A stretch of DNA of 32,247 bases, taken from positions 1 to 32,247 of IMG/VR virus record IMGVR_UViG_3300025632_000046; one strand, given 5' to 3'. Position 1 is the first letter of the stretch. The number at the start of each line of letters is the position of its first letter. Origin of the DNA: a virus. Taxonomy: Duplodnaviria; Caudoviricetes. The translations under genes were made by a program, and so were the position numbers. Shown here in pieces: positions 5,344 to 30,641 of this stretch. The notes beneath the pieces were generated by a model that was given only the letters and a program-made list of their open reading frames with translations, ran no database searches and had not been told where the DNA came from.

Positions 5344-5383
5344 AACCCACCCCCGTCCAATCGCAACAGCGCGCGCCCTTGGC

Positions 5384-5707
5384 TCATAGTTGACCCTCCC
5401 GGCGGGCACCACGCATAGCCGAGCGGATTGATTGAGCCGGCCGACCCTGCGCCCGACGCAGATCATTTGACTCACCACACACGCCAGCACCACACACCAG
5501 CGACGCCGCCCCCCACAGGAAAAAAGCCAAACACACCGCGCCAGTGTCCTTTAATAATTGCAAAATTGCATGACGTATAAACTCACTCTTACTTTTAAAC
5601 CCCCGCATCGTCGCCTCCCGCCCGAGTTGCCTGTGCAACGCTTGCGGCATGTTTACCGACACATTATTCGTTCCTCGACCAATTGGATTTGTAGTTTTGT
5701 TGTTCAT
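5384..5707 (-). CDS. Ribbon-helix-helix (CopG/Arc-like) protein with hydrophobic C-terminal segment
   Basis: NVSVNMPQALHRQLGREATMRGFKSKSEFIRHAI is an RHH pattern, followed by AVCLAFFLWGAASLVCG. Confidence 0.8.
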   Translation of the reverse strand: MNNKTTNPIGRGTNNVSVNMPQALHRQLGREATMRGFKSKSEFIRHAILQLLKDTGAVCLAFFLWGAASLVCGAGVCGESNDLRRAQGRPAQSIRSAMRGARREGQL

Positions 5708-5871
5708 GGCTTTTTATCAGTTATTAAGAACTTATTAAGATCTTTACGAAGAATTGATCGGATCACAGTGCTAACAGTTTCGCCCTGCGCCTTGGCGACC
5801 CGCTGGAGATCGCGCTTCATCGCATTCGGTAGCTCTAAATTAATCCTGGCAATTGCGTTTTCTCTACTCAT
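5704..5871 (-). CDS. 55-aa ribbon-helix-helix protein in the Cro position
   Basis: Below the ORF-track cutoff. MSRENAIARINLELPNAMKRDLQRVAKAQGETVSTVIRSILRKDLNKFLITDKKP*; ATGA overlap with the next gene at 5704-5707. Confidence 0.85.
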   Translation of the reverse strand: MSRENAIARINLELPNAMKRDLQRVAKAQGETVSTVIRSILRKDLNKFLITDKKP

Positions 5872-7332: not shown

Positions 7333-8490
7333 ATGTCACGCCCTAGAAAAACTCGCATTCTTAAAATCGATGGTCGAAAAAAACCGCATCGGGTGATTTA
7401 CTGGGAGGGCGACGCTCGCAAAACGTTACATTTTGAAAAAAAAATTGATGCTCAGCTCTTTGCTCGTCAACACGGCTGGGAAACGTTTGACCCGGCGCTG
7501 GCGGTTTCGGCTGAGGAAAGGATCTTAATCGGCAAGGCGCGGGGCGCGGCCGCTGCTCTCGGAGTGGATGCAAATGCCATTTTCGAGGCCGGACTGAGGG
7601 CGATGCGGTCGACCGCCCGACAGGCTCCCCCGCTGGGAACCGCGATCAGAGCCTATATCGAGGCGGCCGAGCTGGCTGGCGGCCGACCTACGTCGCTGGC
7701 GAATTTGCAACGGTTTTTAGGATTTTTTGAGACAGTTGCAGGTTCTTCGGCACGGGTTGAGGATATCTCGGCCGTGATGGTCTCCAGGGCGGCACAGGCT
7801 CGGTACTCGAACGCGGAGAGCGTGCGCTCGTACATGGCCGTGACGATCGCGTTTTTTAGGTGGTGCGCGGACGCAGAGCGGCAATGGGCTGGCCCTGAGT
7901 GGTTTCTGCGCATCAAGTTGCGGACAGATAGAACCGATAAAGAGCGCGTCACGATCGCGGAGCCGGCACAGGTCGCTGAATTTATGGCTCACTGCCCGGC
8001 GCGGTATCAGCCGGGCTTTGCGATCCAATGGTTTGCGGGGGTGCGTCCTGAGGAAATGGTGCCGTCATATCGCCAGAAGGCGAGGCTAATGTGGAGCGAC
8101 ATCGATCTGGACGCTCGCACGATCCAGATCCGGGCGGCGGTCTCGAAAATCCGGCATCCGCGCTTGATCCATGACTGTTTTAATAATTTGTGGAGCTGGT
8201 TGGCAGCGGTTCCGGAGGCTGAGCGCACTGGCCAGGTGATGCCGATCAACCGTAACAATTTTAAAAAAATGCGCCGCGCGATTGCGGATAAATCGGGCTT
8301 GCCGACACCTTGGCCGCGCGATTTGCCGCGGCATTCATTCGGGACGTACTCGTTTCATCTTTTTGGATTGGAAACGACGATCAATAACACTGGCCACATG
8401 AGTGAGCCGAAAACGTTTTTTTCGCACTATAAAGGATCGACCATAAAAGCCGAGGCGATTGCTTATTCTAATATAGAGTGTCTCATCTAG
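7333..8490 (+). CDS. int: Tyrosine recombinase / phage integrase
   Basis: Box I FAGVRPEE, catalytic K in SKIR, box II DLPRHSFGTY, GH, catalytic Y in FSHY; adjacent to attP. Confidence 0.93.
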   Translation: MSRPRKTRILKIDGRKKPHRVIYWEGDARKTLHFEKKIDAQLFARQHGWETFDPALAVSAEERILIGKARGAAAALGVDANAIFEAGLRAMRSTARQAPPLGTAIRAYIEAAELAGGRPTSLANLQRFLGFFETVAGSSARVEDISAVMVSRAAQARYSNAESVRSYMAVTIAFFRWCADAERQWAGPEWFLRIKLRTDRTDKERVTIAEPAQVAEFMAHCPARYQPGFAIQWFAGVRPEEMVPSYRQKARLMWSDIDLDARTIQIRAAVSKIRHPRLIHDCFNNLWSWLAAVPEAERTGQVMPINRNNFKKMRRAIADKSGLPTPWPRDLPRHSFGTYSFHLFGLETTINNTGHMSEPKTFFSHYKGSTIKAEAIAYSNIECLI

Positions 8491-8542
8491 TTATTTTTGC
8501 AGTGTATTTGTAATCTTTCCCGCGTTTACTATTTAGATAAAT

Positions 8543-8609
8543 AAAAGCCCGCTCCATCTGGGTCATCCAAGCGACGTCATGCGTTGCCCGTAACCGTCAA
8601 GAGCGGACT
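8543..8609 (-). terminator. Long hairpin ending the tail operon
   Basis: Minus strand AGTCCGCTC...GAGCGGGCT followed by TTT, between the convergent int and tail-tip genes. Confidence 0.5.
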
Positions 8610-8650
8610 CCTGAAGTGATTCAATATCCCCATTTAGGGGCCAGAGCTAG

Positions 8651-11428
8651 TTACGTTTCCGTGCCGGCGATGCTGGTGACGTCGGACACATCGCCATAGC
8701 TGTCGCCTCTCACTCTGACCTCATATTGCCAGATGGTGCCGCTGGTATTGAGCGGGAACCCGGTGCTCAGGCCTGACGCGGAGAGAAAATCAACCTCGCC
8801 ATCGTATAGATCATGCCCGGCCTGCTCGTGGCCATCGACTGGGAAAGCGCTTTTGTGCATAAAGTTGCAATCCGCCCAACTCGACCAGGCGCCATAAACT
8901 GAGCCCAATGAATCATTCCTGGAGCGGCGGCGGTATTCCATATCGTCGCCATTGCCTGAGTCTACCCAGCTACCGCAAACGATCATGCCGTCGTGAGGCC
9001 CCCCCGTGTGCTGAAATAACAGCGGCGGCGCATAGTTTTTGGGCCCCTCGTTTTGAGTATTTGTGACATAGCCCGTTGCGAGGGTCCGGGCATCATAGTC
9101 TTTGTACTCTTCGAAAATCCAAATACCGCCTAACTCTCGAACTGAGATATCCCAGGTGGTGCGGCTATCCCAGTCGCGCTCGGCGGATGATCCGGTCTCA
9201 TCGCGTGTCTCTAACGTGACGGGTGTGCCGTCGTCGGTGGTGGCGGGGGCGCTCCAAATTAGATTGAAATATTGGCTTGAAACTGTGCCGTCGCCATTAT
9301 ATGAGCCCCCCGACACATAGACGCCGCTGGCTGCGGGGGCGGTCAGGATCGCGGTGTAATTATAGGTTACCACGTCTGACTCTAAGTCGCCGGCGGTCTC
9401 AAAGTTTTTGAGTTTTAGCACGACGTCGTCATTGTTATGCACGATGGCGATGGTGCCGCCATTGGCGACACTGGGGTCTGACTCGTTAGGTTCGGAGCCG
9501 TCGAGGGTGTAGCGACAGGTGACGCCGGTCTGATTATGTGTGACGGTGACGCTAAAGTTGCTGATAAATGATTGGCTGGTGGGCGAGCCGCTGGGGGGCG
9601 AGAGTTTGGCGTTGACCCAGTTTTCGAGCACGTCGAGGGGCGCGGTAAAGGTGTCGAGCTGGATCTCTTCGGTGCTGGCATCCCAGTCGTAGTGGGTGGC
9701 GGCGATTTCACGTAGATCGAGGGCGACGCCGAGGCGCAGGCCGTCGGCCTGTAGGCGTAGGGATTCGACGCGATAGAGGGCGTCGACATAGCCGAGGCGG
9801 GGCAGGGTGAGTTTGACTACATCGCCACAGAGTAGCTCGTAGGCGTGGAGCCGACAGAGCAATGATAGGCCGCGGCTGCGGCGGGTATCATTGACGGCGA
9901 CTTTAGCAATGCGCTGCGCGGCGGCGGCGCTGGTGGTGAGTGGCAAATCGTAAATGAGGTTGCGCGGTTCGCCGTCGGTTACGACGTGGGCGGCGTTGGT
10001 GTAGTTGGGGTAATTTTCCTCGCTCCAATTATTACCGGCGGATATATAGACGCCTTTGGCGCCATTGCTCCAGGTGCGTCGATTTAAGTTTGATACAACC
10101 TCTCCACCGAGCAAATCGGCTTCGGTGAGGGTGCTGGCTGGGGCGACATACTGGCCAGCGAGCAACACGAATCGGCCGCCGGCATAAGTCAGCACTCCGG
10201 CGCAGGCTTGCACTAGGGCGCGCAGATTATCGCCGATGGTGCGGCTGGTATCGATCACGCCGGAGGCACTGTAACGCGGCTCGCTAGTCGCATCGGCTTT
10301 GCTGACTGACTGATCACAGATATCGGCGGCAGTTGCGAAGGCGGCGTCGTCTAGCTCAGCGATCGAGGCGCCAAAGCCTGACTCAGCGAGTAAATAATCG
10401 CGCAGGGCGAGGGCGGCATTGGTGGAGTAGACGGTGCTGCTGGTGCGTGGATCGTAGATGAGTTTGCCTTTAACCTCGACCTCGATGGTGGGGAGGGTTG
10501 TGCCGAACACAGATTCGCTCGACAGGAGGCGCAGATATATGTAGGCCACGCCACGCAGGCGGCTGTCACTATCCCAAATCGATGTGCCAACCTCGGTTTC
10601 TAGCGCGGCGAGATACGTTTGATCAGCCGCGCCCAGTTTGGCATGGTAATCCACATAGCCGACAAACTCACCGGCGACGACGCCGCCGCTGAGCAGGGCG
10701 CGTTCGTCGATGTAGACTTGCTCGATGCTTTGGCATTGATGATCGGCGATCTCGATTACTAAATTTAGGTACTTGGAAGCGCTGCCGGAGGTGCCGGCAA
10801 ATAGGATGTTGCCAGGGACGCGCCGCTGACCATAGATGATGCGGCGGCTGGCGGGGCCGGGGATGTCTTGGTCGCGAAATAGTGCGACGGCAGTGCGGGC
10901 TCGAGATTCGTGGGCGTAGCCGATATCGGCGGGGTAGCGTGAGCGTTGCTCTTCGTGGGTGGAGAGTGCGGATTTTACGCGGTTGAGATCGACGAGGCGT
11001 GATTCGGCGTTCACGGTCCATGCTTCTGAGGCGGCATCGGAGTCGAATTGTACTTGCGACATGGTGCCGGAAAAAATCTTATAGATATTAGTGGCGGGCA
11101 ATGCTCCATCGGCGGCGTAAAATCCGACATAGACCTCAACGGGTCGGCCTTGATAATTTGCGGGATCCGACAGATCGACGGCCGTGGCAGGGTGGCCAGT
11201 CAAGTCAAGGCTAAGCGACTCGGCATAGAGGCTGGCGGCCTCTGAGACTGTAGGCAGGGTTTGCAGGTGGCCGTGGCCGAGCCATGTTTCGGAATCATAC
11301 GACAGATCGCCTTCGCCGGTCCAGGTGCGCAGGCTGTAGCCGACAAAGTCGAAGTGCGCCAGGTAAACAGGGCGCACGGTGCCCGCCGCGATGGCGGTTT
11401 TAATTTCGGTTGAAAGTCCGCGTGGCAT
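8651..11428 (-). CDS. Tail tip / host-specificity protein (minor-tail domain fused to J-like domain plus Fn3/chitobiase-like domain)
   Basis: Start moved to ATG 11428 (MPRGLSTEIK). RRIIYGQRRV, LRGVAYIYLRL, VKGKLIYDPR, YSTNAALALRDYL are J-like; RYTLDGSEP is an Fn3_assoc/CHB_HEX_C-type motif. Confidence 0.85.
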   Translation of the reverse strand: MPRGLSTEIKTAIAAGTVRPVYLAHFDFVGYSLRTWTGEGDLSYDSETWLGHGHLQTLPTVSEAASLYAESLSLDLTGHPATAVDLSDPANYQGRPVEVYVGFYAADGALPATNIYKIFSGTMSQVQFDSDAASEAWTVNAESRLVDLNRVKSALSTHEEQRSRYPADIGYAHESRARTAVALFRDQDIPGPASRRIIYGQRRVPGNILFAGTSGSASKYLNLVIEIADHQCQSIEQVYIDERALLSGGVVAGEFVGYVDYHAKLGAADQTYLAALETEVGTSIWDSDSRLRGVAYIYLRLLSSESVFGTTLPTIEVEVKGKLIYDPRTSSTVYSTNAALALRDYLLAESGFGASIAELDDAAFATAADICDQSVSKADATSEPRYSASGVIDTSRTIGDNLRALVQACAGVLTYAGGRFVLLAGQYVAPASTLTEADLLGGEVVSNLNRRTWSNGAKGVYISAGNNWSEENYPNYTNAAHVVTDGEPRNLIYDLPLTTSAAAAQRIAKVAVNDTRRSRGLSLLCRLHAYELLCGDVVKLTLPRLGYVDALYRVESLRLQADGLRLGVALDLREIAATHYDWDASTEEIQLDTFTAPLDVLENWVNAKLSPPSGSPTSQSFISNFSVTVTHNQTGVTCRYTLDGSEPNESDPSVANGGTIAIVHNNDDVVLKLKNFETAGDLESDVVTYNYTAILTAPAASGVYVSGGSYNGDGTVSSQYFNLIWSAPATTDDGTPVTLETRDETGSSAERDWDSRTTWDISVRELGGIWIFEEYKDYDARTLATGYVTNTQNEGPKNYAPPLLFQHTGGPHDGMIVCGSWVDSGNGDDMEYRRRSRNDSLGSVYGAWSSWADCNFMHKSAFPVDGHEQAGHDLYDGEVDFLSASGLSTGFPLNTSGTIWQYEVRVRGDSYGDVSDVTSIAGTET

Positions 11429-11429
11429 T

Positions 11430-12011
11430 TTAGACTGCCTCCTTTGCGCCGAGGGTGAAGCCGTAGGTTTTGGCGACATCCATCTCCCATTCGATCGAGT
11501 CGAACAAGCGAAAGACGCCTACGGGGGCGGTGTATTCGACGGTGCTCGAGGCGGCCACGATCTCACTGCGCGGTTTAGGCCAGACTTCGATCGTGGCAGC
11601 ACCGGCGACGGCAGTGTCGCCGGTGGTGATTCGATACAGGCCTGTTTCGATCTGGATCCAATCGCCAGCGGTGAAGGTGCCGGTCATGCCAGACAGATCG
11701 AGATAATTCTCAGAGATCGCATCGACCACCACGGTGCCCGAGACATTGGCCTGCGGCGTGGCATCGGTCGGCGCGAATTTAAAGGTGCCTTCGCGGCCGT
11801 TGAGCCTGAGCAGTACGGCTGCCCACTCGGCTGCGGCGGCGCCATGCAGCGGCGGCAGCTCCGCATTGATCTCCCACCATTGGCCGGGGTGCGCGTAGAC
11901 TTGGCTCTGCCCGGTGAAGGGCGAGCTTGATACGGCAACGCGGCTGGCTTGATGCCAGGTGAGGCGGCGGGGGCGCGGATCGCTGGGCAGGGTGATCGGG
12001 TAAGTGGGCAT
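11430..12011 (-). CDS. Distal tail (Dit-like) protein
   Basis: Follows the TMP; SSPFTGQSQVY..PGQWWE motif common in siphovirus post-TMP proteins. Confidence 0.75.
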   Translation of the reverse strand: MPTYPITLPSDPRPRRLTWHQASRVAVSSSPFTGQSQVYAHPGQWWEINAELPPLHGAAAAEWAAVLLRLNGREGTFKFAPTDATPQANVSGTVVVDAISENYLDLSGMTGTFTAGDWIQIETGLYRITTGDTAVAGAATIEVWPKPRSEIVAASSTVEYTAPVGVFRLFDSIEWEMDVAKTYGFTLGAKEAV

Positions 12012-18699: not shown

Positions 18700-21147
18700 T
18701 TACTGGCTCAGCCGAGCGTGCCAGGTGAACGTCTGACCGGCGGTCGTCGGATCAGCATCGGCGTTGATCGTAAATTGTGTATCAGTGATGCTAGTCACCC
18801 AGAATTTCACAGAGTCCGTGCTATTGGTCGGCGCGATCGACACCTCAGTGGGGGCTTTGCGGACGCCATGAGCCACAACGATACTAGTCGTTCCGGTGGC
18901 GATAGTGGCAGTGCCTGAGTTAGTCACCTTGTAGCCGGTGCCGTTGACATAATAGTTATTAGCAATTACCCCCGTAGTGGGAGCTGACGCGGAAATGTTT
19001 AAATCTTTATTAGAACCATCCAAACGGTTACCAGTAATCACATAATCAGTGGTCGTGCCCGCTAGATAAATCCCCCAATAATGCTCCACCCAATTCCCCA
19101 TGACGACGGGGCTCGCTCCTGATAGCGAAATCCCCGAATGGAAAGACGCATTACCCGTCGCACGGATTACGTTACCTGAAATCACCCCGTAATTGGTTGA
19201 GGATGCTGCGCCAATGGCCGCGAAGTTTACGATGTCCTTTAAATTGTTATTTGAAATAACGTAGTTATCGCCGGTCGTAATTGAAATCCCCCCATAAGCT
19301 CCAATCAATTGCAGGAAATTTTCCGTAATGGTGAGATTGTCGCCACCGAGCCTAATCCCCGCATCGACGGTGGCCGAGATGGTATTACCCGATATTACGA
19401 CCCGATCCACAGTGCCATTATTAGTGATCCCCCGATCACCAGAATCGAGGATGCGATTTGCGTGAACCATCGCGTCGTGAGATGAGAGCTGGATGGAGTG
19501 GCTCCCGGTGCCAGAAATCACGTTACCACTAATATCGGCGTATGGTTGAGCTGTGGTCGTATAAATGCCCACACCGACCGCATCGGTGACTTCGCCATTT
19601 TTAAATGTGCAATGAGCGCCTGCGATGTAAACGCCTTGCGCACCGGCTCTCAGCGTGGTGTTGCCCGCACACGTAATCCCATCCTTGACCAGGTGGAAAC
19701 CAATCGTGCCCGAGTCTGCATCCAAGCAATCAGTTATTTTCGCATTTTCCGCGCTGATATAAAATCCCACGGCGGCGGCGTTTAGCGAGGTATTACCCGA
19801 TGCACGCAGCACACTGGCCCCGCTGCCACCCGTCGCAGCACCCAATATGAAACCATTGACTAACGAATCCTCAGACACATTACCGTCAATCGAGCACCCA
19901 TCCGCAAAGGTCACACTGATCCCAGTGTTCTGCGTGGCCTTGGTGTAGTTACCACTGACGACGTGAAAGTTACCCGCGACGCTTAACCCGAAACCACCAG
20001 TTGATGTCGAGGTGACACCCTCCACCGAATTGCCCATGATCTTAATGCCCCGAGCCACCGAGGTCACGCCAACAGCGGCAGCGCCAATGATGTCGGAAAA
20101 TTTATTGCCGATAACAGTGGTATGCTCTGGTCGGCACTCCTCTTGAGTCAGCGTGCCACCGTCGTCATCGTAAGTCATGTCGATGCCTTTAGGCTCGGAT
20201 GCCCCACCAACCGACCAACCAAATCCGGTGTTGGTAACTTCGTTAAAGCTTATATCACCATTACGCACGCCATACGTATGAATGCCGTTACCATTACAAT
20301 CGTAGATTCGATTGTGAGTGATCACCGCACCCGGGTTCACCCCATCAAGATCAATGCCGTCTTGACCTGCGCTGTGAATCCAGCAGTTGCGGATCGTCAG
20401 ATTTTCCGTATTGTCACCATTAATCACCTCATTCTCGCGATAGGGAGATTGCGCCGGATAGCTACCATCGAGCTGAAGACTATGGATCGTGACGTTCTTA
20501 AAATAGCGCGATCCGTTTTTGTTGATCTTCACGACACGCCAATCACTATCAGCCGTGGCGTTCAGCTTTAAACATGAGTCAAAACCCACCCCAAAAAGCG
20601 TTGTCCCTTCGACCGTAATATCAAGGTCACGCACCATGTATGTGCCAGGCGGAATAAACACAGCCCCACCAACATCGAGCGCCGCCTGGATCGCAGCAGT
20701 GTCATCAGTCACGCCATCGCCGATAGCACCATAGGGCGCATTTTTAACATTAATAATGGCAGTAGATTGATTAGTGGCCAGGGTGCCTTGCGCGGCAGTA
20801 GCAAACGCAGCATCCGCTGCAGTGACAGTGTAAGCATCCGCAATCCCATAGCCCGAGAGCGTGGTCGGCTTGCCGGTGACGTCGGCCCAGGCGGAGGTGA
20901 TGTTTAAATCCGCAGCCCACTCGGCTGCATCAAATGCGGAGTTGCTCGACGGGTCCGCCGCAAAGGGCGAGACGATCTGCTCCAGGGTGGCATCGACATC
21001 GGCAGGCGTGCCATCGACATCGACCATCCAGACCTTGTCGCTCGCGCTGATCGTGGTGGCATCGGGTAGCGCCTCGATGGTGCTGGTCGCGGCCTGCGCG
21101 AACAGTGAGAGTGACAGTGCGAGTGCGAGTGTGAAAATGTATTTCAT
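18700..21147 (-). CDS. Beta-helix fibre/spike (pectate-lyase-3-like depolymerase fold) with N-terminal signal peptide
   Basis: WADVTGKPTTLSGYGIADAY and ATAAQG fibre repeats; NVKNAPYGAIGDGVTDDTAAIQAAL...FIPPGTY; many I.GN repeats; C-terminal beta-sandwich. Confidence 0.88.
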   Translation of the reverse strand: MKYIFTLALALSLSLFAQAATSTIEALPDATTISASDKVWMVDVDGTPADVDATLEQIVSPFAADPSSNSAFDAAEWAADLNITSAWADVTGKPTTLSGYGIADAYTVTAADAAFATAAQGTLATNQSTAIINVKNAPYGAIGDGVTDDTAAIQAALDVGGAVFIPPGTYMVRDLDITVEGTTLFGVGFDSCLKLNATADSDWRVVKINKNGSRYFKNVTIHSLQLDGSYPAQSPYRENEVINGDNTENLTIRNCWIHSAGQDGIDLDGVNPGAVITHNRIYDCNGNGIHTYGVRNGDISFNEVTNTGFGWSVGGASEPKGIDMTYDDDGGTLTQEECRPEHTTVIGNKFSDIIGAAAVGVTSVARGIKIMGNSVEGVTSTSTGGFGLSVAGNFHVVSGNYTKATQNTGISVTFADGCSIDGNVSEDSLVNGFILGAATGGSGASVLRASGNTSLNAAAVGFYISAENAKITDCLDADSGTIGFHLVKDGITCAGNTTLRAGAQGVYIAGAHCTFKNGEVTDAVGVGIYTTTAQPYADISGNVISGTGSHSIQLSSHDAMVHANRILDSGDRGITNNGTVDRVVISGNTISATVDAGIRLGGDNLTITENFLQLIGAYGGISITTGDNYVISNNNLKDIVNFAAIGAASSTNYGVISGNVIRATGNASFHSGISLSGASPVVMGNWVEHYWGIYLAGTTTDYVITGNRLDGSNKDLNISASAPTTGVIANNYYVNGTGYKVTNSGTATIATGTTSIVVAHGVRKAPTEVSIAPTNSTDSVKFWVTSITDTQFTINADADPTTAGQTFTWHARLSQ

Positions 21148-23129: not shown

Positions 23130-23765
23130 TTATTGAAGCCGGGCTGCTCGCAAGCGTAGCACCTGCAAACTCGGCGTAGTTGGTTTTTCGTTGCGCTCTT
23201 CCGAGGCAGATTGCCCGGCGGGAGATTTGGTGCGGCTCAGTTCGAGGCTACGCTTGGCGATGCTCGTATCTGGATACGCGGGAAAAGTAACAGCAGAGAC
23301 CTCGATCAGCTCGACATCGATCAAACGGCGCAGCTCGGGCTCATCCTCGCGCTCGATCCATTCTTGCTCGCGGGCACGGAAGCCAAAACTCATGCCGTCG
23401 ATATTGCCGGCGTTGATGTTGGCGATCAGATCGCGGGCCGCAGTGGTATCGGGCAGATCGATCTCGATCCGCAGCCCGGTCGCGTCCTCCTCTAGGCGCA
23501 GGGTTTTTGCATCGCGGCGCCCAATCACCTGCGCGCTGTCGTGATTATACAGCGCTCGCACATCGTCGCCATCGGTCAACGATCGCGTAAAGGCACCCAC
23601 CACCACCTCCTCCTCGAACCAGCCCAGATCGGTGCGCGAATCAAACACCGCAGCATAGCCCACCAGCGTCGGCATCGTGCCATCAGCGCCAGCACGTAGC
23701 TCGACGCGGCTAGTAGTCACGGCGCTGCGGATTTCGGTCTGCAAAGGAGATGGTTTTTTAATCAT
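23130..23765 (-). CDS. Prohead protease, HK97 family
   Basis: GYAAVFD, ALYNHD, GMSFGF, EVSAVTFPAYPDT. Confidence 0.96.
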   Translation of the reverse strand: MIKKPSPLQTEIRSAVTTSRVELRAGADGTMPTLVGYAAVFDSRTDLGWFEEEVVVGAFTRSLTDGDDVRALYNHDSAQVIGRRDAKTLRLEEDATGLRIEIDLPDTTAARDLIANINAGNIDGMSFGFRAREQEWIEREDEPELRRLIDVELIEVSAVTFPAYPDTSIAKRSLELSRTKSPAGQSASEERNEKPTTPSLQVLRLRAARLQ

Positions 23766-25003
23766 TTGGTGTCGGGTTTATTATTGGCAGCATCGGCCAT
23801 GTTAAGCGGTTGCAGATAGACGTCGCCCTGCGCGCCGATATTACTCAAATCTTCCAGAGCGCGGATCTCGTTGACGTTCATCCACCCCCCATTACGCGCG
23901 ATGCTATACGCCTCAAAGCGCGTTTTCAGATCACCACGGAGCAACCCCGCGATATTAAATTTGATAAAATGCGTTTTCCGCTCCTCGGCGCTCAGCAGCT
24001 TTTGATCCAGCGCCTGCTCCCAGGTCACCAAGATCGGGCGAATCGTATCAGTGACGAACGATATATTCTCCTGCTCCACATTGGCACGCGGCTGGTTGCC
24101 GATGATCCCTACTTTGTGCCCAGGCACCGAAAAGAAACGCGCAATATCCTTCGCCTGACGATCGCGAGATTCATCAAACTGGCTCTCGTTATTCTTCGAT
24201 CTGCCTTCGCGAAACTTTAAATCCTCTTCCAGAACTTTCACTTTGCTGGCATTTTCGCCACCGGTCGCCGTCTGGAAAGCCACCTCCAAACGTTTGAGCG
24301 CCTCGGGGCTCAACTGGTTCGGAGTTTCAAGGAAGCCACCGGGGAAAGAGCCATTCTTGAAAAAATAGCCCGCGTTTTTATCCAGCGCCGCAGCCAAGCC
24401 GATACTATCGCGTGCGGTATCAGTCAGGCTTGCAGGCAGGATGCCATTAAACGACGTGCCACGCAGGTGGATCACCTGGCTGCCATCCAACGTGCTACCA
24501 TCCACAATATATTTTAACTCACCAGCGATACGTTTCGGCTGCACGTCCTTCGCCTGCCGAGCGATCAACCCAGTAATATCGCCAAACCCATTGCGCACGA
24601 TGATCGCGTACCCGTTTTGATGCAGCGATAGATTCGCCTGCACCGCGCGCCGAAAATCCACCGATGTCATATCCTCATGCGGCGCACTGTGCAAAATCGA
24701 CTGCAAATGATGATCTAAATCCACGGTACTCGCCCGCTCGCCCGGTACTCGCCGGTGAACATTTAGCGGCAGCGTCGCCACCGTGTTGGCCAACAGATTA
24801 ACCGCCGCATACGCCGTCGAAACGCCCATCGCCACCTGCTCATTAACATTAATGCCAGCGCTCGAGGCCGCGCCCAACAGCGAGTTAATCCACAGCGTCT
24901 CTACCGATGGGGCCGCAGGGGCCGCAACCGCCCCCGCCTTAAACGATGCACGCGCCTCCGTCCCCGGAATAAATTTTGCGATAGATGAAAATAGCTGCGG
25001 CAT
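23762..25003 (-). CDS. Portal protein, HK97 family
   Basis: LANTVATLPL, GYFFKNG, IARFFSVP, LLRGDLKTR, GWMNVNEIRALEDL. Confidence 0.96.
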   Translation of the reverse strand: MPQLFSSIAKFIPGTEARASFKAGAVAAPAAPSVETLWINSLLGAASSAGINVNEQVAMGVSTAYAAVNLLANTVATLPLNVHRRVPGERASTVDLDHHLQSILHSAPHEDMTSVDFRRAVQANLSLHQNGYAIIVRNGFGDITGLIARQAKDVQPKRIAGELKYIVDGSTLDGSQVIHLRGTSFNGILPASLTDTARDSIGLAAALDKNAGYFFKNGSFPGGFLETPNQLSPEALKRLEVAFQTATGGENASKVKVLEEDLKFREGRSKNNESQFDESRDRQAKDIARFFSVPGHKVGIIGNQPRANVEQENISFVTDTIRPILVTWEQALDQKLLSAEERKTHFIKFNIAGLLRGDLKTRFEAYSIARNGGWMNVNEIRALEDLSNIGAQGDVYLQPLNMADAANNKPDTK

Positions 25004-25094
25004 GCATACAGAGTGGCCGAGCCCGAACGACTAAACAATTCACGGATTGTTTTACCTCGTTTAACTGAGTTTTACTGAGTCTAGTTCCAGTGGG

Positions 25095-25140
25095 GCAGAA
25101 CAGTCATGCGACTCAATGCTGAGTCTCTTTTACGTTCTCT
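25095..25140 (+). repeat. attC-like site 1 (short, possibly degenerate)
   Basis: GCAGAAC...GACTCA-ATGC-TGAGTC...GTTCTCT. Confidence 0.6.
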
Positions 25141-25304
25141 AATTGAATTTCAGCATCCATCTTGTCGAATAACTTCAGCTCCTTCTCCCATCGATCCATT
25201 AGTCGTCTGAACTCTTTGCGGTTTTCAGCATCAAGAAACGCATCACCACTAAAAACTGACGCATCAATGGCATCTAGTTGATCTTCTAAGTATTTTCGCA
25301 TCAT
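25113..25304 (-). CDS. Cassette 1 hypothetical protein
   Basis: 63 aa; the C-terminus ENVKETQH* is encoded inside site 1. Confidence 0.75.
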   Translation of the reverse strand: MMRKYLEDQLDAIDASVFSGDAFLDAENRKEFRRLMDRWEKELKLFDKMDAEIQLENVKETQH

Positions 25305-25334
25305 AGTATTTATCGTGTTTGTGTTACGTCTGGC

Positions 25335-25382
25335 CGAGAACCAGACAGTCGAGGGAACAAGTCCCTCACTTATTCGTTATAC
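25335..25382 (+). repeat. attC-like site 2 (48 bp)
   Basis: CGAGAAC-CAGAC-AGT(C)GAGGGA-ACAAG-TCCCTCACT-TATTC-GTTATAC. Confidence 0.88.
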
Positions 25383-25655
25383 TTAAAAGTCGTAGGCGAT
25401 TTCCTGCCGCTTCGCCAGCTCTAGGACGGCGGTCTCTTCTGTTGCATCCCACACAATATCGGGATGATCGCACGGGTAACATGTGCCGCAAGTCATGGCA
25501 TCCAACATCGCCGATTCATAGTCACCAACCCATGCTTCCCACTTGCCCTCGTCTTCGTTAATATCTTCACGGCGCTTTGTCTGTATGCCGTGTTTTTCAC
25601 GCCATAGAATATACGGCGATTTGCTCGCCACTTCGTTTTCTTTGAATAGTTCCAT
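25383..25655 (-). CDS. Cassette 2 hypothetical protein
   Basis: 90 aa ORF; its stop abuts the R' box of site 2. Confidence 0.78.
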   Translation of the reverse strand: MELFKENEVASKSPYILWREKHGIQTKRREDINEDEGKWEAWVGDYESAMLDAMTCGTCYPCDHPDIVWDATEETAVLELAKRQEIAYDF

Positions 25656-25680
25656 ATTGTTCCAGTCGTTACGTTAAAAA

Positions 25681-25743
25681 GTATAACAAATCAGCGCTCA
25701 CAATTCCTTCGTGCCTCAGTCATGAGACACTTCATTGTTTGTA
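25681..25743 (+). repeat. attC-like site 3
   Basis: GTATAAC-AAATC-AGCGCTCA...TGAGACACT-TCATT-GTTTGTA. Confidence 0.78.
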
Positions 25744-25775
25744 AAATTTTGGGAGGTATAACCAGATCGCTTGAT

Positions 25776-25970
25776 TCAATCGTATTGATCCACGGTTGTA
25801 TTAATAGCATCAGTGATCATTTCAGCCTCGCTAGCTCTGAAACAAAAGTGGTCTTGTCCTTCACCCTCCAACCCAATGCAAAACTCATCATCGGTATTTT
25901 CTATTTTGTAGATGCGAAGTCTTTGCCCTTCATCATTCGTTAGTATTACTGTTTCATATTCTTTTTTCAT
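25776..25970 (-). CDS. Cassette 3 hypothetical protein
   Basis: 64 aa; the ATG lies inside the R'' box (TCATAAC) of site 4. Confidence 0.72.
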   Translation of the reverse strand: MKKEYETVILTNDEGQRLRIYKIENTDDEFCIGLEGEGQDHFCFRASEAEMITDAINTTVDQYD

Positions 25971-26054
25971 AACCAGTCAGTGCGGTGAATGCGAGATCAC
26001 GCGCCAGTGTTGTTTAAATCAGTTGGCTCGCATCCACCAACTTCGTTGTTCTGC
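25967..26054 (+). repeat. attC-like site 4
   Basis: TCATAAC-CAGTC-AGTGCGGTGAATGCGAG...CTCGCATCCACCAACT-TCGTT-GTTCTGC. Confidence 0.86.
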
Positions 26055-26060
26055 TTCAGA

Positions 26061-26378
26061 TTATCCACCACCCCACCAAGCGAAGCCTTCGGGAGTTGTC
26101 ACCTTTCTCGGGCGAGGAACATCTTTCGGCAATTCGTATGGTTGGCGTGGATCGTCTCGGTCTTCAGAGTGTCCGCGAATATTCCACCATGCTGTGTGGT
26201 CAGCCTCTTTGAGAGCATCCCACGCTCCGGCCTCATCAGCGGCGAAGGCGAACGCCATGCCGTCTGTGTAATCGGTCAATACGCATTCCCAAACCCAGCA
26301 GAACAAGGCAGTGCTACCAACCTGCTCCCCGCTGGGAGTTGTCGGCGTTAATTCTGATTCGGTAGTTTCTGGTGTCAT
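26061..26378 (-). CDS. Cassette 4 hypothetical protein
   Basis: Start moved to ATG 26378 (MTPETTES) inside the loop of site 5; LFCWVWECVLTDYTDGMAFAFA...AWWGGG. Confidence 0.75.
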   Translation of the reverse strand: MTPETTESELTPTTPSGEQVGSTALFCWVWECVLTDYTDGMAFAFAADEAGAWDALKEADHTAWWNIRGHSEDRDDPRQPYELPKDVPRPRKVTTPEGFAWWGGG

Positions 26379-26426
26379 TGGTCGTTTTTGGTTGTGTCCG
26401 CAGGTGGCAGACTTTGGTCGTTCTAC
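26298..26426 (+). repeat. attC-like site 5
   Basis: GCAGAAC-AAGGC-AGT(G)CTACCAACCTGC...GCAGGTGGCAGACT-TTGGTC-GTTCTAC. Confidence 0.88.
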
Positions 26427-26857
26427 TAAAAATCCCCCTTCGCCACTTGGAAGCACGGCACGCATACGCTTCTCCAGTATTCCACCATCGAGTCTCGGTC
26501 CTCAAAAACCAAGTCAGGTCGGATGCCGATAAGTTGCAGCATCTCAGGCTTGACGATTGTATCGTGACGACGATCCCCATCAGGGCGCATCAGTAGATGT
26601 TTATACCCGATCACTCCATTCTTTCGCAGCCACTCTTCTGTTTGTGGCCTTACGGATTCCCTGCGACCAGTAAGCAAGACCATCTCTGGCCCCATCCCTG
26701 TAGCGTGCAGAGCTTGGTAAGTTTGGATCGCTGGATGATTCGGGAGGTCTTCTCCGCACCGCTCATAGAACTCATCCCAATTTCCGTCTGCTAAGCATTT
26801 CACGCGGTCGCCTACCAATGAGAGTGTTCCGTCTATATCGAATATTACTGTCTTCAT
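26426..26857 (-). CDS. Cassette 5: HAD phosphatase, T4 polynucleotide kinase 3'-phosphatase-like
   Basis: FDIDGTL, LLTGR, LLMRPDGDRR.D...K, VFEDR...W...CFQVAKGDF. Confidence 0.9.
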   Translation of the reverse strand: MKTVIFDIDGTLSLVGDRVKCLADGNWDEFYERCGEDLPNHPAIQTYQALHATGMGPEMVLLTGRRESVRPQTEEWLRKNGVIGYKHLLMRPDGDRRHDTIVKPEMLQLIGIRPDLVFEDRDSMVEYWRSVCVPCFQVAKGDF

Positions 26858-26894
26858 AGTTTGTTGTATTTTAGTGTTATTGTAGCGTTAAAAA

Positions 26895-26956
26895 GTAGAA
26901 CCAAACGGAGCTAGGAGCTGCGTCGTTCCTCCTTGTCCTAGTCCTTCTTGTTCGCA
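26895..26956 (+). repeat. attC-like site 6
   Basis: GTAGAAC-CAAAC-GGA(G)CTAGGA...TCCTAGTCC-TTCTT-GTTCGCA. Confidence 0.9.
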
Positions 26957-27273
26957 GAGAGAAGCGCCCAACTTGTATGACATTCGGGGCAGACAAAAAC
27001 TCTACCATTCTCTAGCGCGTCATCTTCACTCTGGCCGGGGTCTTCGATTAGATCGTCTTCCGGTCCACTCCATGTGCAGTGGTTGTGGCATTCAATCTCG
27101 ATTTCCGAACATAGCACTGCACCTAATGCCGAGCCGGCTTCCGTCTCTCCATTATCGAGATTCATTCTCAAAAAAAACTCATCAAGCCGTTTTAGCGCTT
27201 GGAGCGTCACAATAATCGTTATCTCGTTGGGAAGTTCGTATTCTGTCAATCGCTTTTCGTTATTTTTTATCAT
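26938..27273 (-). CDS. Cassette 6 gene b: Zn-ribbon-like protein
   Basis: CHNHC...CPEC; C-terminus SANKKD* inside site 6. Confidence 0.72.
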   Translation of the reverse strand: MIKNNEKRLTEYELPNEITIIVTLQALKRLDEFFLRMNLDNGETEAGSALGAVLCSEIEIECHNHCTWSGPEDDLIEDPGQSEDDALENGRVFVCPECHTSWALLSANKKD

Positions 27274-27282
27274 ATTTTTACC

Positions 27283-27507
27283 TTATGTTTCTGTATTCAT
27301 AGCTTTCTGGCGCTCATTCGCAGACAGCAAGCCGTAGCCCATCGCGAAAAATGCAACTAGCATTGCATCTACACCAGCGGCGCGACTGTTAGCTGTGAGA
27401 ATAAACGTCATCATGCCCACCCAGCACCACGTCGGCCCAAACCATCGAACCAAACGATTGAGACAACGCCATATAGCGCCGCCGTGTTTGTCTGTAGATT
27501 TATCCAT
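27283..27507 (-). CDS. Cassette 6 gene a: small membrane protein
   Basis: Start (MDKSTDK) in the loop of site 7; two hydrophobic stretches. Confidence 0.62.
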   Translation of the reverse strand: MDKSTDKHGGAIWRCLNRLVRWFGPTWCWVGMMTFILTANSRAAGVDAMLVAFFAMGYGLLSANERQKAMNTET

Positions 27508-27532
27508 GGCGTATCTCATCTAGGCGTTCTGC
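27444..27532 (+). repeat. attC-like site 7
   Basis: ATCGAAC-CAAAC-GAT(T)GAGACAACGCCAT...ATGGCGTATCTCATC-TAGGC-GTTCTGC. Confidence 0.88.
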
Positions 27533-27786
27533 TCATGTCGGAAGCTCCACGCGAAGAACGCCGCCTTCGATCCGCCGCGGCCTTTTGCGTTCATCTCGCC
27601 GCCTCGCAGTCGCTCAATCATCCATTCGAGTTCCGTGATTGCGTCGTCAGTGGTTTCCGCTGTGATCGCAACCGTAATGTGCACTGGCCGATGCAACCGA
27701 AACGGTGCGGATTCCCACTCACCAACGACATCGGGCAAAGCCGAACAAACAGGATGCAGACAACGCTCTATGGGCTTTTTTGTCAT
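27520..27786 (-). CDS. Cassette 7 hypothetical protein
   Basis: Starts in the site 8 loop and ends EQNA* in site 7. Confidence 0.72.
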   Translation of the reverse strand: MTKKPIERCLHPVCSALPDVVGEWESAPFRLHRPVHITVAITAETTDDAITELEWMIERLRGGEMNAKGRGGSKAAFFAWSFRHEQNA

Positions 27787-27828
27787 ATTGATGTCTTGGG
27801 TTCGCGTGTCTGATCCTGAGCGTTCTGC
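27740..27828 (+). repeat. attC-like site 8
   Basis: GCCGAAC-AAACA-GGAT(G)CAGAC(A)ACGC...GCGTGTCTGATCC-TGAGC-GTTCTGC. Confidence 0.9.
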
Positions 27829-28115
27829 TTAGAATTTTGCTCGCGTATCTTTGCAGCACGTTCGAGGGCGCGTTCTGCCGCTGACTCATACTGCTCGGCG
27901 GTCGGCCATCCCGCAACCAGGCCGATTCCAACGTCATCATGCGCCTCGATTTCGTCCATGATTTTTCCGTCAGAGCGGACAAGCCTTAAATGCAGGCGAG
28001 GCCGTTGTCCACGCATCGCCTGCATGTAGCCGTCGCAGTATCCCCGCGATCGCCCCTTGATGAACGGGTTCCATTTGTCCAAACACGGACATTCGATGTG
28101 ATATGTGTAAGCCAT
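27783..28115 (-). CDS. Cassette 8 gene b hypothetical protein
   Basis: Start at 28115 (MAYTY) or 28133; ends in site 8 with an ATGA overlap to the next gene. Confidence 0.72.
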   Translation of the reverse strand: MAYTYHIECPCLDKWNPFIKGRSRGYCDGYMQAMRGQRPRLHLRLVRSDGKIMDEIEAHDDVGIGLVAGWPTAEQYESAAERALERAAKIREQNSKQNAQDQTREPKTSI

Positions 28116-28119
28116 AGTT

Positions 28120-28356
28120 TTAATTAGGGTCATCGTAGCATCTCAAGCAATCTCCGCACAAAGCGTGAGTGTATCCATGAGCGTTATCTTTAAGAATCCA
28201 CCTGTCGCGCTCTACGAATTGGCCGCAATCTCCGCATCGCATGTAGAACAAGTCGGAGTGAGACAATGCCTGTTTGGGCGTTGTCGTGCATTCGCCTCGA
28301 TGGGAGACTTGGCACTTAAGGCAGACTGGAGCGGCATTGTATATTTGATCACTCAT
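28120..28356 (-). CDS. Cassette 8 gene a: Cys-rich Zn-finger-like protein
   Basis: CLKC, CGDC, CGDC; starts inside site 9. Confidence 0.7.
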   Translation of the reverse strand: MSDQIYNAAPVCLKCQVSHRGECTTTPKQALSHSDLFYMRCGDCGQFVERDRWILKDNAHGYTHALCGDCLRCYDDPN

Positions 28357-28387
28357 GATTCAGGCATGTTCATCCTTTGCGTTATGA
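28243..28387 (+). repeat. attC-like site 9
   Basis: GTAGAAC-AAGTC-GGA(G)TGAGACAATGCCTG...CAGGCATGTTCATCC-TTTGC-GTTATGA. Confidence 0.86.
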
Positions 28388-28644
28388 AGATAAAGCGCAT
28401 CAGATCCGTATCGCGTGATGCTGTAATATTTATCAGGACACCATGACACCGTTCCGCGATATTCCATCAGCCCCATATCGACGAGCTTGTCCATCGCTTC
28501 CGAGCCTCCACAATATAGACCTCTAGTTGCGCGGTGTTGGGTATGGTCGAGGATGTCTAGCATCTCCTTCGTCAGTTCATAACCAGACGGCGTAGTCAAT
28601 GCCTGAGCCGTCGCTGTGTTTGTTGTATCAGTTGGTTTTCCCAT
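28360..28644 (-). CDS. Cassette 9: winged-helix-like hypothetical protein
   Basis: MDKLVDMGLMEY...YYSITRYG; starts in site 10 and ends HNAKDEHA* in site 9. Confidence 0.72.
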   Translation of the reverse strand: MGKPTDTTNTATAQALTTPSGYELTKEMLDILDHTQHRATRGLYCGGSEAMDKLVDMGLMEYRGTVSWCPDKYYSITRYGSDALYLHNAKDEHA

Positions 28645-28710
28645 AGTCTTAATCCTTATCTATTGTCGTTGGTTTTGTGGCTCAGTCATCGACTAGCCTA
28701 TTTGTTGTCG
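28577..28710 (+). repeat. attC-like site 10
   Basis: TCATAAC-CAGAC-GGC(G)TAGTCAATGCCTGAGCC...GGCTCAGTCATCGACTAGCC-TATTT-GTTGTCG. Confidence 0.9.
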
Positions 28711-28734: not shown

Positions 28735-28977
28735 TTATTTTGAAAAATCAACATGCAGAGTGGCCACTGGTACCGCGCCAGCATCTCCTGAAGTTTTTTT
28801 TAAATAGTTGGTCGTCGAAAAATTCGGATGCGCCCGCAGCCACTCCCGCGCCTCGGCCACTGTCGCAGTACCGCCTGGCATCGCAAAACCCGATTTTTTC
28901 ATCGCGTAAATATAACACCGCGAGCGGCGCAGCGCATCAGCCAATTCGTCGGCAAATAATAAATTGTTGTCACTCAT
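28735..28977 (-). CDS. Small HTH-like DNA-binding protein
   Basis: DELADALRRSRCYIYAMKKSG...VAEAREWL; ATGA overlap with terL. Confidence 0.65.
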   Translation of the reverse strand: MSDNNLLFADELADALRRSRCYIYAMKKSGFAMPGGTATVAEAREWLRAHPNFSTTNYLKKTSGDAGAVPVATLHVDFSK

Positions 28978-30641
28978 AGTTCAATGATTCCGCGGTCCTC
29001 ATACACGCTGCGCTCAGCCTTGTTTTTCAGGATTGCGCCGCCCACCGCATTTGATTTTGCCGACAGGCCGTCGATTCGTTTTCGCGCCGAGCGCTTGTTT
29101 AATTTAATATTCAGCGCCGGATCTCGAATCGTCTCTGCATTTGCCGCATTCCAGCTCAGCACTGGGTTCGGCGCATTGCGCAGCGTGCCATTCAGCAGCC
29201 GCCGCTCGATCTCCTTGAGCGCCGGGCTTTGCGACTGGTACCCCTGACCAAACGGCACGCACGTCACCACCTCCTCGCGCATCAGATTCTGCACGATGCT
29301 CGACGATTTCCAGCGGTCATATAATAATTCTTGCACATCGAAACGCTCGACCAGCTCACGAATTTCTACCTCGATAAAATCAAAATCAGTCGCACTGCCA
29401 GGCGTCGACCGCAAGTGCCCGGCTTTTGCCCATTGCGCATAAGGCACCCGGTCCGCCCTCGAGCGTTCCAATATATCTTCCGCGGGACACCAGAAAATCG
29501 AGAAACTGCGCCAGATCCCATCATCCCCAGGGAACAAGATATCGAGCGCCGACATATCATTGACCTCGGCCAAATCTAGCCCCAGGTAGCACGGCTGCCC
29601 CGCGAAATCTTCCAGGCGCAGCGCGGCATCCTCGGCAGCTTTCCACCGCGCCAGATCCAACCAGCGCTCGGCGGCATGGCTCCAAATATTCAAATGCTTT
29701 ACTTGAAAATCCACCATGCGACTCGGCAGCTGAATGGCCTTGCGACATTGATCTTCCATATATTCCAACCCCTTCGATACGCCCAGGTTAGGATTCGCCA
29801 TAGCCCACTGCAGCGGATCGTCAAACGCGTCCTTATCCGTCACCGTCGCGATATAAACGAACAGCGTATCGTCATAATATTCTTCCATTGCCGGATCCAG
29901 CACGTTGATCGCGTGCTCATGTTTCTCATAGCAGAGCGACTCAGGATTGACCCCCGCCGTGGTGATCACATAGATCAACGGCTGCGCACGCGCGCCCATC
30001 GAATCCTCCACCTGCGACCACAGCAGCCGATCCTCCCAGGCATGCAGCTCGTCAACCAGACCCATGTGCGTATTCAAACCATCGATCGTTTTAGAATCAC
30101 GCCCGAGCGGCTCGAACTTTGAAGCCATCGAAGGCATCGATATATTAGACACGTAGCAGTTTATCCGCTTCGCCAGCGCAGGCGATTTGCTGATCATCAT
30201 TTTCGCATCCGTCCACAGGATTTTAGCCTGATCGCGTTTCGTCGCTACCGCGTAAATTTCAGCCCCCTGCTCTCCATCCAGCGCCAGCCCATAAATGCCA
30301 GTGCCCCCGCCAATCGTCGTTTTTCCATTTTTACGCGGTATCTCCACATAGCTCTCTCGAAAACGCCGCAGCCCGTCGAGCCGACGCTTCCAGCCAAAGA
30401 TCGAGCCCTGAATAAACATTTGCCACATTTCCAACTCGATCGCCGTGCCGGACCATTTGCCTTTCCAGTGTTTCAACAATTTGAAAAAATCCAGATGCAC
30501 CGCCACCTCTTCCAGATCAAGATAGATATCATCACGCTGCAGATCCGCAAAATGGCGCTCACACGCCCAGATCACATACGGCCCCGCCGCGATCTCACCC
30601 GCCAGCACCCGCTCAGCGTATAGAGTCACCGGATCATTCAC
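28974..30641 (-). CDS. terL: Terminase large subunit
   Basis: Walker A PRKNGKT, Walker B LVDELH, ITTAG, LGLDLA, RIDG. Confidence 0.97.
   Translation of the reverse strand: MNDPVTLYAERVLAGEIAAGPYVIWACERHFADLQRDDIYLDLEEVAVHLDFFKLLKHWKGKWSGTAIELEMWQMFIQGSIFGWKRRLDGLRRFRESYVEIPRKNGKTTIGGGTGIYGLALDGEQGAEIYAVATKRDQAKILWTDAKMMISKSPALAKRINCYVSNISMPSMASKFEPLGRDSKTIDGLNTHMGLVDELHAWEDRLLWSQVEDSMGARAQPLIYVITTAGVNPESLCYEKHEHAINVLDPAMEEYYDDTLFVYIATVTDKDAFDDPLQWAMANPNLGVSKGLEYMEDQCRKAIQLPSRMVDFQVKHLNIWSHAAERWLDLARWKAAEDAALRLEDFAGQPCYLGLDLAEVNDMSALDILFPGDDGIWRSFSIFWCPAEDILERSRADRVPYAQWAKAGHLRSTPGSATDFDFIEVEIRELVERFDVQELLYDRWKSSSIVQNLMREEVVTCVPFGQGYQSQSPALKEIERRLLNGTLRNAPNPVLSWNAANAETIRDPALNIKLNKRSARKRIDGLSAKSNAVGGAILKNKAERSVYEDRGIIEL

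Follow-up and report, generated by a model that had tools for sequence, protein, structure and literature searches.

The virus record IMGVR_UViG_3300025632_000046 (32,247 nt), analysed here over its whole length and referred to as the window, carries an array of ten attC-type sites, the recombination sites of integron cassettes, between the gene for the terminase large subunit (terL) and the portal gene. The window encodes an HK97-like tailed phage. Its terS, terL, portal, protease, capsid, connector and tail genes are all on the - strand; it also has a primase region, and a tyrosine integrase on the + strand. The array occupies 25095-28710, ten sites in 3.6 kb, and bounds nine cassettes. Its upstream flank is terL (28974-30641, - strand; Pfam TerL_ATPase and TerL_nuclease) and its downstream flank the portal gene (23762-25003, - strand; Pfam Phage_portal, E=3e-85). 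The original prediction, made from the letters alone, had placed the array directly between these two genes; all ten sites are present, but an open reading frame (ORF) of 80 aa at 28735-28977 on the - strand separates them from terL. This small gene, orf80, is conserved (tblastn 54-66% in L015, L017, L018, L019, L024, L029 and L030; L and X labels denote fetched loci or contigs and sequencing runs), and its 3' end adjoins the array in relatives.

Anatomy of the sites and polarity of the cassette genes

The sites lie at 25095-25140 (site 1, 46 nt, with degenerate L boxes; crossover G at 25134), 25335-25382 (site 2; 25376), 25681-25743 (site 3, its L boxes likewise degenerate; 25737), 25967-26054 (site 4; 26048), 26298-26426 (site 5; 26420), 26895-26956 (site 6; 26950), 27444-27532 (site 7; 27526), 27740-27828 (site 8; 27822), 28243-28387 (site 9; 28381) and 28577-28710 (site 10; 28704), all on the + strand, the last number in each bracket being the crossover G. 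Site 1 is the fixed portal-side end of the array and the crossover of site 10 its terL-side end. R'' (..AAC) and R' (GTT..) core boxes flank all ten sites, and eight, all except sites 1 and 3, have L'' and L' as an inverted repeat, the L'' arm carrying an extra base on the + strand, and spacers of 5-6 nt, much as had been described from the letters. Ahead of the terminal attC on the portal side, the window (25087-25101) and L017 (about 5797-5813) have a near-identical stretch of 15-16 nt that ends in the R'' box; it is kept at 72% terL identity although the terminal attC sites differ.

Complementarity between R' and R'' boxes, taken from neighbour to neighbour, amounts to 6, 7, 4, 7, 7, 5, 6, 6 and 7 of 7 positions; eight of these values had been counted identically in the original prediction, which gave 3/7 for the one that is 4/7. 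Over the four variable positions the offset match is 28/36 compared to 15/40 within sites (permutation p = 5.5e-5), so that pairing within sites is indeed the worse of the two. The poor match of 4/7, at the site 3 junction, is explained by an extra T at 25737-25739. Cassette 3 starts at 25739 in three runs, which is how the extra letter in the window was recognised, and L022 may show the same one-base gain at 2457-2463.

A strict scanner for attC geometry that we wrote for this purpose found seven of the ten sites, all on one strand, while 300 dinucleotide shuffles gave a mean of 0.04 sites and a maximum of 1. An Rfam search of the window returned no match. No two sites share an identical stretch of more than 10 nt. 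Folding of the bottom strands, suggested earlier as a check, came out only in part: z-scores range from -3.0 to +0.75, half of the sites have unremarkable energies, and pairing of the L arms is seen for seven sites (in the minimum-energy fold of 2, 4, 5, 8 and 10, and in the centroid of 6 and 7) but not in the predicted folds of sites 3 and 9. With same-strand attC sites less than 4 kb apart and no intI nearby, the array is a cluster of attC sites lacking integron-integrases (CALIN) as defined by Cury et al. 2016.

The nine cassettes are 242-576 bp long, with the ORFs given here on the - strand. Cassette 1 (25135-25376, 242 bp; own attC site 2) has a 63-aa ORF (25113-25304) that takes its final codons from site 1, and cassette 2 (25377-25737, 361 bp; own attC site 3) a 90-aa ORF without a family (25383-25655). 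The 64-aa ORF of cassette 3 (25738-26048, 311 bp) spans 25776-25970 with its ATG within the R'' box of site 4, and that of cassette 4 (26049-26420, 372 bp) likely starts with the ATG that the site 5 loop has at 26378 and ends at 26061. Cassette 5 (26421-26950, 530 bp; own attC site 6) contains a gene for a HAD-family polynucleotide kinase-phosphatase (PNKP) domain at 26426-26857 (Pfam HAD_PNKP, E=6e-28; PHROG 415, E=8e-37). Cassette 6 (26951-27526, 576 bp) holds two ORFs, one at 27283-27519 starting in site 7 and one at 26938-27273 crossing the crossover into site 6. In cassette 7 (27527-27822, 296 bp) the ORF at 27520-27786 starts in the loop of site 8, where its start overlaps the stop of the upstream ORF (ATGA). 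The ORFs of cassette 8 (27823-28381, 559 bp) start in site 9 (28120-28356) and end inside site 8 (27783-28133), and cassette 9 (28382-28704, 323 bp) has an ORF at 28360-28644 with its start in the loop of site 10. Past the ORF stop in cassette 3, positions 25756-25775 hold a second GTATAAC and a spacer-like stretch, possibly the relic of a lost attC.

The attC sites' top strand, as placed by the extra base in the L'' arm, is the + strand, and the genes are on the - strand, a feature missing from the original prediction. The coding strand was assigned because of the PNKP family match in cassette 5; the rule of the longest ORF is noisy by itself, with ties in the window, and we relied on family matches for polarity. 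None of the 12 + strand ORFs of the array has a Pfam match; family matches and homologues occur only on the bottom strand, among them 32 homologues of the 116-aa ORF at 27783-28133. On this sequence evidence the coding strand is the bottom, recombinogenic strand of attC, the opposite of classical cassettes.

In six of the nine cassettes the first ORF starts within the cassette's own attC, and in five of the nine the last ORF crosses the crossover into the neighbour's site and takes its final codons there. The 111-aa gene of cassette 6 ends 3 residues past the crossover asparagine in the window and 13 past it in L008, and unrelated genes adjoining site 1 in the window and L004 share their last six residues. 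The predicted C-terminal tail is dependent on the site of the neighbouring cassette. The homologues of the 27783-28133 protein (P0326-P0357) combine a conserved core with highly variable C-terminal tails, several of which start at an asparagine, as neighbour-derived tails would look. A 38% homologue of the 78-aa ORF of cassette 8 starts in a reversed attC, that is, one with the gene on its bottom strand, in L199.

A tblastn comparison of the 11 cassette ORFs of the window with all other fetched loci gave one match. With the cassette 9 gene as query, a scan of viral contigs yielded two records of the same phage and nothing else, hence no near-identical cassette in an unrelated phage. None of six distant PNKP homologues has a scanner-called site within 900 bp of the match. 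A scan for sigma-70-like promoters found none on the + strand and four on the - strand, compared to 5.0 by chance.

Cassette exchange and the integron integrase of a sister phage

Phages about 99% identical or closer differ in this array by deletion, replacement, new cassettes and reordering, and the breakpoints fall on G^TT or no more than 4 nt from it. This comparison of intervals had been proposed along with the original prediction, and the gain, loss and reordering that it foresaw were all found. Among five near-identical viral contigs, L001-L003 match the window over their own length, and L008 and L004 differ. In L008, 26049-26950 (cassettes 4 and 5) is replaced by a different 304-bp cassette with its own attC and an ORF starting in the loop, and identity with the window extends 4 and 2 nt beyond the two crossovers. 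L004 has another cassette after site 1.

Sequencing runs were compared at 90% likeness, and contigs of 4 of the 20 listed runs were aligned; the RNA runs in the list, X16-X20, had small shares. Runs X6 (depth 76) and X7 (depth 6), which come from different studies, both show a deletion of two cassettes (902 bp) that joins 26048 to 26950, with 255 and 212 nt on the short side and six ambiguous letters spanning both crossovers; cassettes 4 and 5 are thus absent in X6, X7 and L008. X6 is also reordered, with cassette 1 following site 7 and a further 262 letters; X7 connects site 10 with cassette 3, a new cassette follows site 7 in X5, and both the L008 and the L004 junctions are present in X8. 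Cassette 3 has other neighbours in X6, X7 and X8, and likewise cassette 9, while site 1 is kept in the window, L001-L004 and X5-X7 with a different adjoining cassette in L004, X6 and X8. Of the 39 loose ends in these alignments 21 were listed; 9 of them fall no more than 4 nt from a crossover and 18 within a site, the sites making up 18% of the stretch. Six letters of microhomology are in our judgement too few for an assembly misjoin, and homologous recombination between sites was rejected because they share at most 10 identical nt. Contigs of X6 at depth >1000 match window 25335-25382 and 27423-27456 with other flanks, so sites similar to these occur in an abundant organism or in other phages of that sample.

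More distant relatives were collected with a terL alignment (75 metagenome and 45 viral loci). Reversed sites are found at the same locus in relatives with 48-92% terL identity, with different genes. One of them, the sister phage L015 (terL 92%, portal 86%), has orf80, one reversed attC, one cassette gene of 106 aa, a candidate attI and a 326-aa IntI, followed by portal. For the L015 IntI (P0177), TIGR02249 is the best family by far (256 bits, E=5e-76), residues 16-319 align with VchIntIA (2A3V) with E=2.5e-43 across the IntI-specific insertion, and the tyrosine-recombinase residues R, K, H-x-x-R, H and Y are invariant in 18 relatives of the protein. L017 and L029, in which the whole interval is spanned, have reversed attC sites and no intI, so that intI occurs in one of three relatives with a complete interval; L018, L030, L022 and L065 have reversed sites after terL. 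The window has no cassette gene in common with L015, L017, L018, L022, L029, L030 or L065. Since the relatives keep reversed sites at this locus with wholly different cassettes, the platform, judged from these alignments, is old and its content fully turned over. Among more distant terL loci there are only scattered scanner matches, on both strands, and scans of viral contigs with the sister-phage IntI alone and with the HNH gene alone found no relative.

The window itself encodes no IntI, as originally stated. Its sole tyrosine recombinase, a 385-aa lysogeny-type integrase at 7333-8490 on the + strand (PHROG 1, E=5e-10), has no match to TIGR02249 at E<=0.1 and no significant likeness to the sister-phage IntI, and an IntI query against the whole record found nothing. 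The candidate attI motif described below has no exact match in the window; its six one-mismatch matches are the number expected by chance.

Both window ends are collinear with a contiguous region from HNH to terS in L017, where exactly 10 nt (470-480) lie between the points matching positions 1 and 32247, and contigs of two further relatives match from the same point. The window is accordingly read as the complete genome of a cos-ended temperate phage from which only the cohesive end is absent, which fits the 10-nt gap. A CheckV completeness of 43% was set aside, the ends being collinear with the contiguous cos region of the relative.

The wider distribution was surveyed with an alignment of 18 IntI relatives, which retrieved 70 viral loci; these were chosen by likeness to one IntI and are not a census. 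Upstream of intI, 139 sites are in the canonical orientation to intI and 6 in the opposite one, and 30 of the 70 loci have at least two upstream sites. Of 97 segments between sites, taken from 29 loci, 64 have their longest ORF on the bottom strand. PHROGs matches in the 29 loci were obtained for 23 of 93 bottom-strand ORFs (three of them duplicates) and for none of 78 top-strand ORFs; they include nine DNA methyltransferases, the others being HNH, Mom-like and Lar-like. Pfam likewise matches none of the 78 viral top-strand ORFs, compared to two of three ORFs of the chromosomal control. Of the 20 distinct matched ORFs, 10 start and 14 stop inside a site. In 20 of 38 IntI loci (L015 included) a GTT near the intI start that matches the R'' of the first cassette is preceded by K-AAT-S and three bases, and three further loci have a spacer one base longer; the motif is seen at about 3330 in L015 and near the intI start in L134-L193, and is a candidate for the attI of phages. 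In a quick IntI tree, 22 of 28 array-bearing viral IntIs fall in one clade that also includes proteins of unknown context; the clade label needs four changes, and in this quick tree a single origin of the array-bearing viral IntIs is unsupported. TJE1, M16-3, Va p16 and two loci on planctomycete chromosomes are canonical in polarity according to the scanner. In L203 (Virus Rctr41k; 4680-5678 and 8415-8545) and L141 (2333-4042), IntI-like genes have reversed attC sites downstream and not upstream.

Some evidence bears on the host. All runs that hold at least half of the window (6 of the 20 listed) are marine metagenomes. The best organism-named homologue is in Coraliomargarita sp. SDUM461003 both for the lysogeny integrase of the window (51%) and for the L015 IntI (55%); this isolate is Thalassobacterium maritimum, Verrucomicrobiota, and the two homologues (MDQ8206221.1 and MDQ8206238.1) are each on a contig of 213,226 bp, 17 accession numbers apart. 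It is likely that the isolate carries a related prophage with intI, and a Coraliomargarita-like host is likely for the phage of the window. A search of genome contigs with the attC pattern gave four matches, none informative on the host: one, in Desulfosarcina, follows a gene in canonical polarity, and the other three have no scanner-called site at the match.

Two observations concern the surroundings of the array. An 815-aa beta-helix tailspike-like protein is encoded at 18700-21147, between the capsid and head-tail adaptor genes, which is an unusual place; L015 has an ORF of 1243 aa, of unrelated length, at the same spot (8269-12000). Two to three direct repeats with 10-bp spacing lie just upstream of portal in the window (25065-25082), L015 (4545-4580), L017 (6456-6488) and L029 (3390-3422), with a different sequence in each; they would be candidate binding sites for a regulator such as orf80, giving portal its own control.

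Explanations for the array

The array is a real and variable CALIN by the definition of Cury et al., which works like an integron array; because the polarity of its ORFs does not agree, it is not a classical cassette array. These results lead us to propose, with a probability of roughly 0.8, that it is a phage-adapted integron array whose genes occupy the bottom strand; intI and attI of its own would have been lost, and exchange of its cassettes would take place at G^TT, probably through an IntI provided in trans. The ancestor would have held intI and attI at the portal side, as in the sister phage, and the lineage of the window would have lost both. When single-stranded, the coding strand would fold into attC hairpins to be cut by IntI at AAC, and excision and insertion by attC x attC recombination would continue with the enzyme acting in trans, since the genome is complete and without intI. 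Our first choice for its source, at slightly better than even odds, is a related phage that is co-resident or co-infecting; the host chromosome is the second and a distinctly more doubtful candidate. The original prediction of a shuffleable platform recombined in trans by a host IntI thus holds for the platform, as near-identical phages differ by whole cassettes at G^TT, and less well for the host, as a sister phage encodes IntI at the same locus. The late transcript of terS, terL and orf80 would read through the array, entering from the end opposite attI, and each cassette would bring its own start codon in or beside its attC. Bottom-strand genes may have been selected by this direction of transcription, the bacterial cassette promoter Pc having its position at the other end of the array.

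Several points weigh against this proposal. Sites 1 and 3 have no clean L box, several sites fold no better than shuffles, and the extrahelical base on the bottom strand is C or A in most sites and G only in site 2. The L015 IntI scores 9 bits under the TIGR02249 cut-off (265). Among the viral IntI loci, 40 of 70 have fewer than two scanner-called upstream sites, and 13 of the 97 segments have a longer top-strand ORF, with 20 ties. Of the loose ends 18 of 39 were unseen, and at 90% likeness some come from other organisms. No excised cassette circle or transcript was seen in the runs examined, all of them contigs, and no source of an IntI for the window array was observed.

Part of this evidence would also fit a relic in which shuffling takes place only in intI-bearing relatives and phages without intI gain new arrangements by homologous recombination across shared flanks. 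The sister lineage does have intI in cis, the window has no exact attI motif, and sites 1 and 3 are degenerate. Such a history is improbable, as the cassettes and flanks on either side of the deletion, replacement and reordering match the window at 99-100% identity, no intI is present in the stretch from portal to site 1 in any of the seven other covering records (L001-L004 and X5-X7), and the sole intI-bearing relative fetched has no cassette DNA in common with the window. The G^TT crossovers and the retained IntI-type asymmetry speak against another alternative, that a different enzyme (the lysogeny integrase, a host Xer-type or another single-strand DNA recombinase) is responsible or that the hairpins are mainly RNA or translation elements. 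The phage does have its own tyrosine recombinase, and start and stop codons lie inside sites; we consider this alternative very unlikely nevertheless, given that a site of this kind is accompanied by an IntI in the sister phage, and the lysogeny integrase, lacking the IntI signature, was rejected as the shuffling enzyme.

Least probable of all is a single acquisition of a piece of a bacterial chromosomal array, with the bottom-strand ORFs as shadows or later arrivals. Prophages with captured host integron segments have been described (Qi et al. 2023, PMC9892861), and Verrucomicrobia encode integrons (PMC4889954). This origin is already largely refuted by the family matches, which are all bottom-strand and phage-type, by the absence of Pfam matches from top-strand ORFs in window and viral loci as opposed to the chromosomal controls, and by the reversed sites with different genes at the same locus across 48-92% terL identity.

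Integrons are treated as bacterial devices that, through their strand selectivity, bring genes under Pc. In the window this chemistry would operate on flipped genes in the late region of a phage, and natural variants show the turnover of whole cassettes. We lean, by a small margin, towards the broader view that phages run an integron system of their own, with a phage-enriched IntI lineage, an own attI motif and a reversed cassette pool that is shuffled with a borrowed enzyme. Because polarity is fixed by attC, a host cassette of canonical layout would lie antisense in the array of the phage, and one from the phage would face Pc once in a host integron. Host cassettes, including those of anti-phage defence (bioRxiv 10.1101/2024.07.02.601686, 10.1101/2024.07.02.601719), would then go unexpressed in the phage array, as would phage cassettes in integrons of the host; opposite orientation prevents cassette expression (PMC5027507). 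If so, there are two chemically compatible, expression-insulated gene pools, polarity would insulate the phage from anti-phage cassettes of the host, and shuffling would also rewrite protein C-termini. The array would offer a precise non-homologous route to mosaicism among small genes of phages (in related arrays, methyltransferase, Lar-like and Mom-like genes), and it bears on the origin of cassettes, as ordinary phage genes occur with and without attC. The system is open to test in the cultured Verrucomicrobium that likely carries a related intI prophage, and reversed sites in PH101 have already been assayed, as discussed below.

Comparison with known integrons

The original prediction noted that integrons are generally described as chromosomal or plasmid elements and not as phage elements, a description that needs qualification: attC clusters in phages are already known (Qi et al. 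2023, PMC9892861), and the distinctive feature here is the reversed gene polarity. Qi et al. found 17 CALINs, three complete integrons and one In0 in 10,705 phage genomes; IntI1 recombined five of six tested phage attC sites, and bottom strands of PH101 recombined with attI1 under IntI1. Their CALINs resemble the window in having same-strand attC clusters without intI and phage-type cargo such as DNA methyltransferases, but have 2-4 sites (Table S1) compared to ten here, and their complete integrons (M16-3, Va p16) are captured bacterial ones with canonical cassettes. In the text consulted, no array variation among near-identical phages is reported, gene polarity relative to attC is unmentioned, and the arrays of TJE1 and PH101 are called typical. 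Our scanner calls four sites of the Pseudoalteromonas phage PH101 reversed (L206 490-546, 1093-1169, 1892-1948 and 2501-2558). The forward primers of Table S3 correspond to the bottom strand, and both PH101 ones are on the strand of the annotated genes. The IntI1-tested CALIN of PH101 thus appears to have reversed polarity, as judged from annotation with hypothetical adjoining genes, and we count the recombination of these same-polarity sites by IntI1 in favour of the proposed array. In the literature searched, with most subscription journals outside the search, no description of bottom-strand cassette genes in phages was found.

The window shares with classical integrons (Nivina et al. 2016, PMC5027507) the R''/L''/L'/R' order, the extrahelical base of the L'' arm, the G^TT crossover and the offset R'/R'' complementarity. 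L015 and the viral loci are also classical in that attI adjoins the start of intI, which is directed away from the attC top strand. In contrast to a classical cassette, where a top-strand ORF is followed by its attC, the phage ORF is on the bottom strand, so that attC precedes the gene and often holds its start codon; the window also lacks the intI and attI of a complete integron. Phage cassette genes, unlike classical ones, run in the direction of intI and terminate at attI, and their expression would come from the far end and not from Pc. A bottom strand that is the lagging-strand template favours recombination (PMC5371416). GC skew in the window would fit this arrangement; it is confounded with coding bias and was not used as evidence.

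Two other systems share part of this organisation. In integrons with inverted integrases, for example in Treponema (Cury et al. 2016, PMC4889954), the cassette genes have the direction of intI, as in the phage loci. Synthetic protein-coding attC sites (Nivina et al. 2020, PMC7439510) also encode peptide, but the phage sites are natural, and the arm of the neighbour gives a variable C-terminal tail, as in cassette 6 of L008 and the window. What the window adds to the known systems is exchange at G^TT at the population level, intI of a sister phage at the same locus and a candidate attI motif of phages, together with a candidate cultured lysogen and the polarity of PH101.

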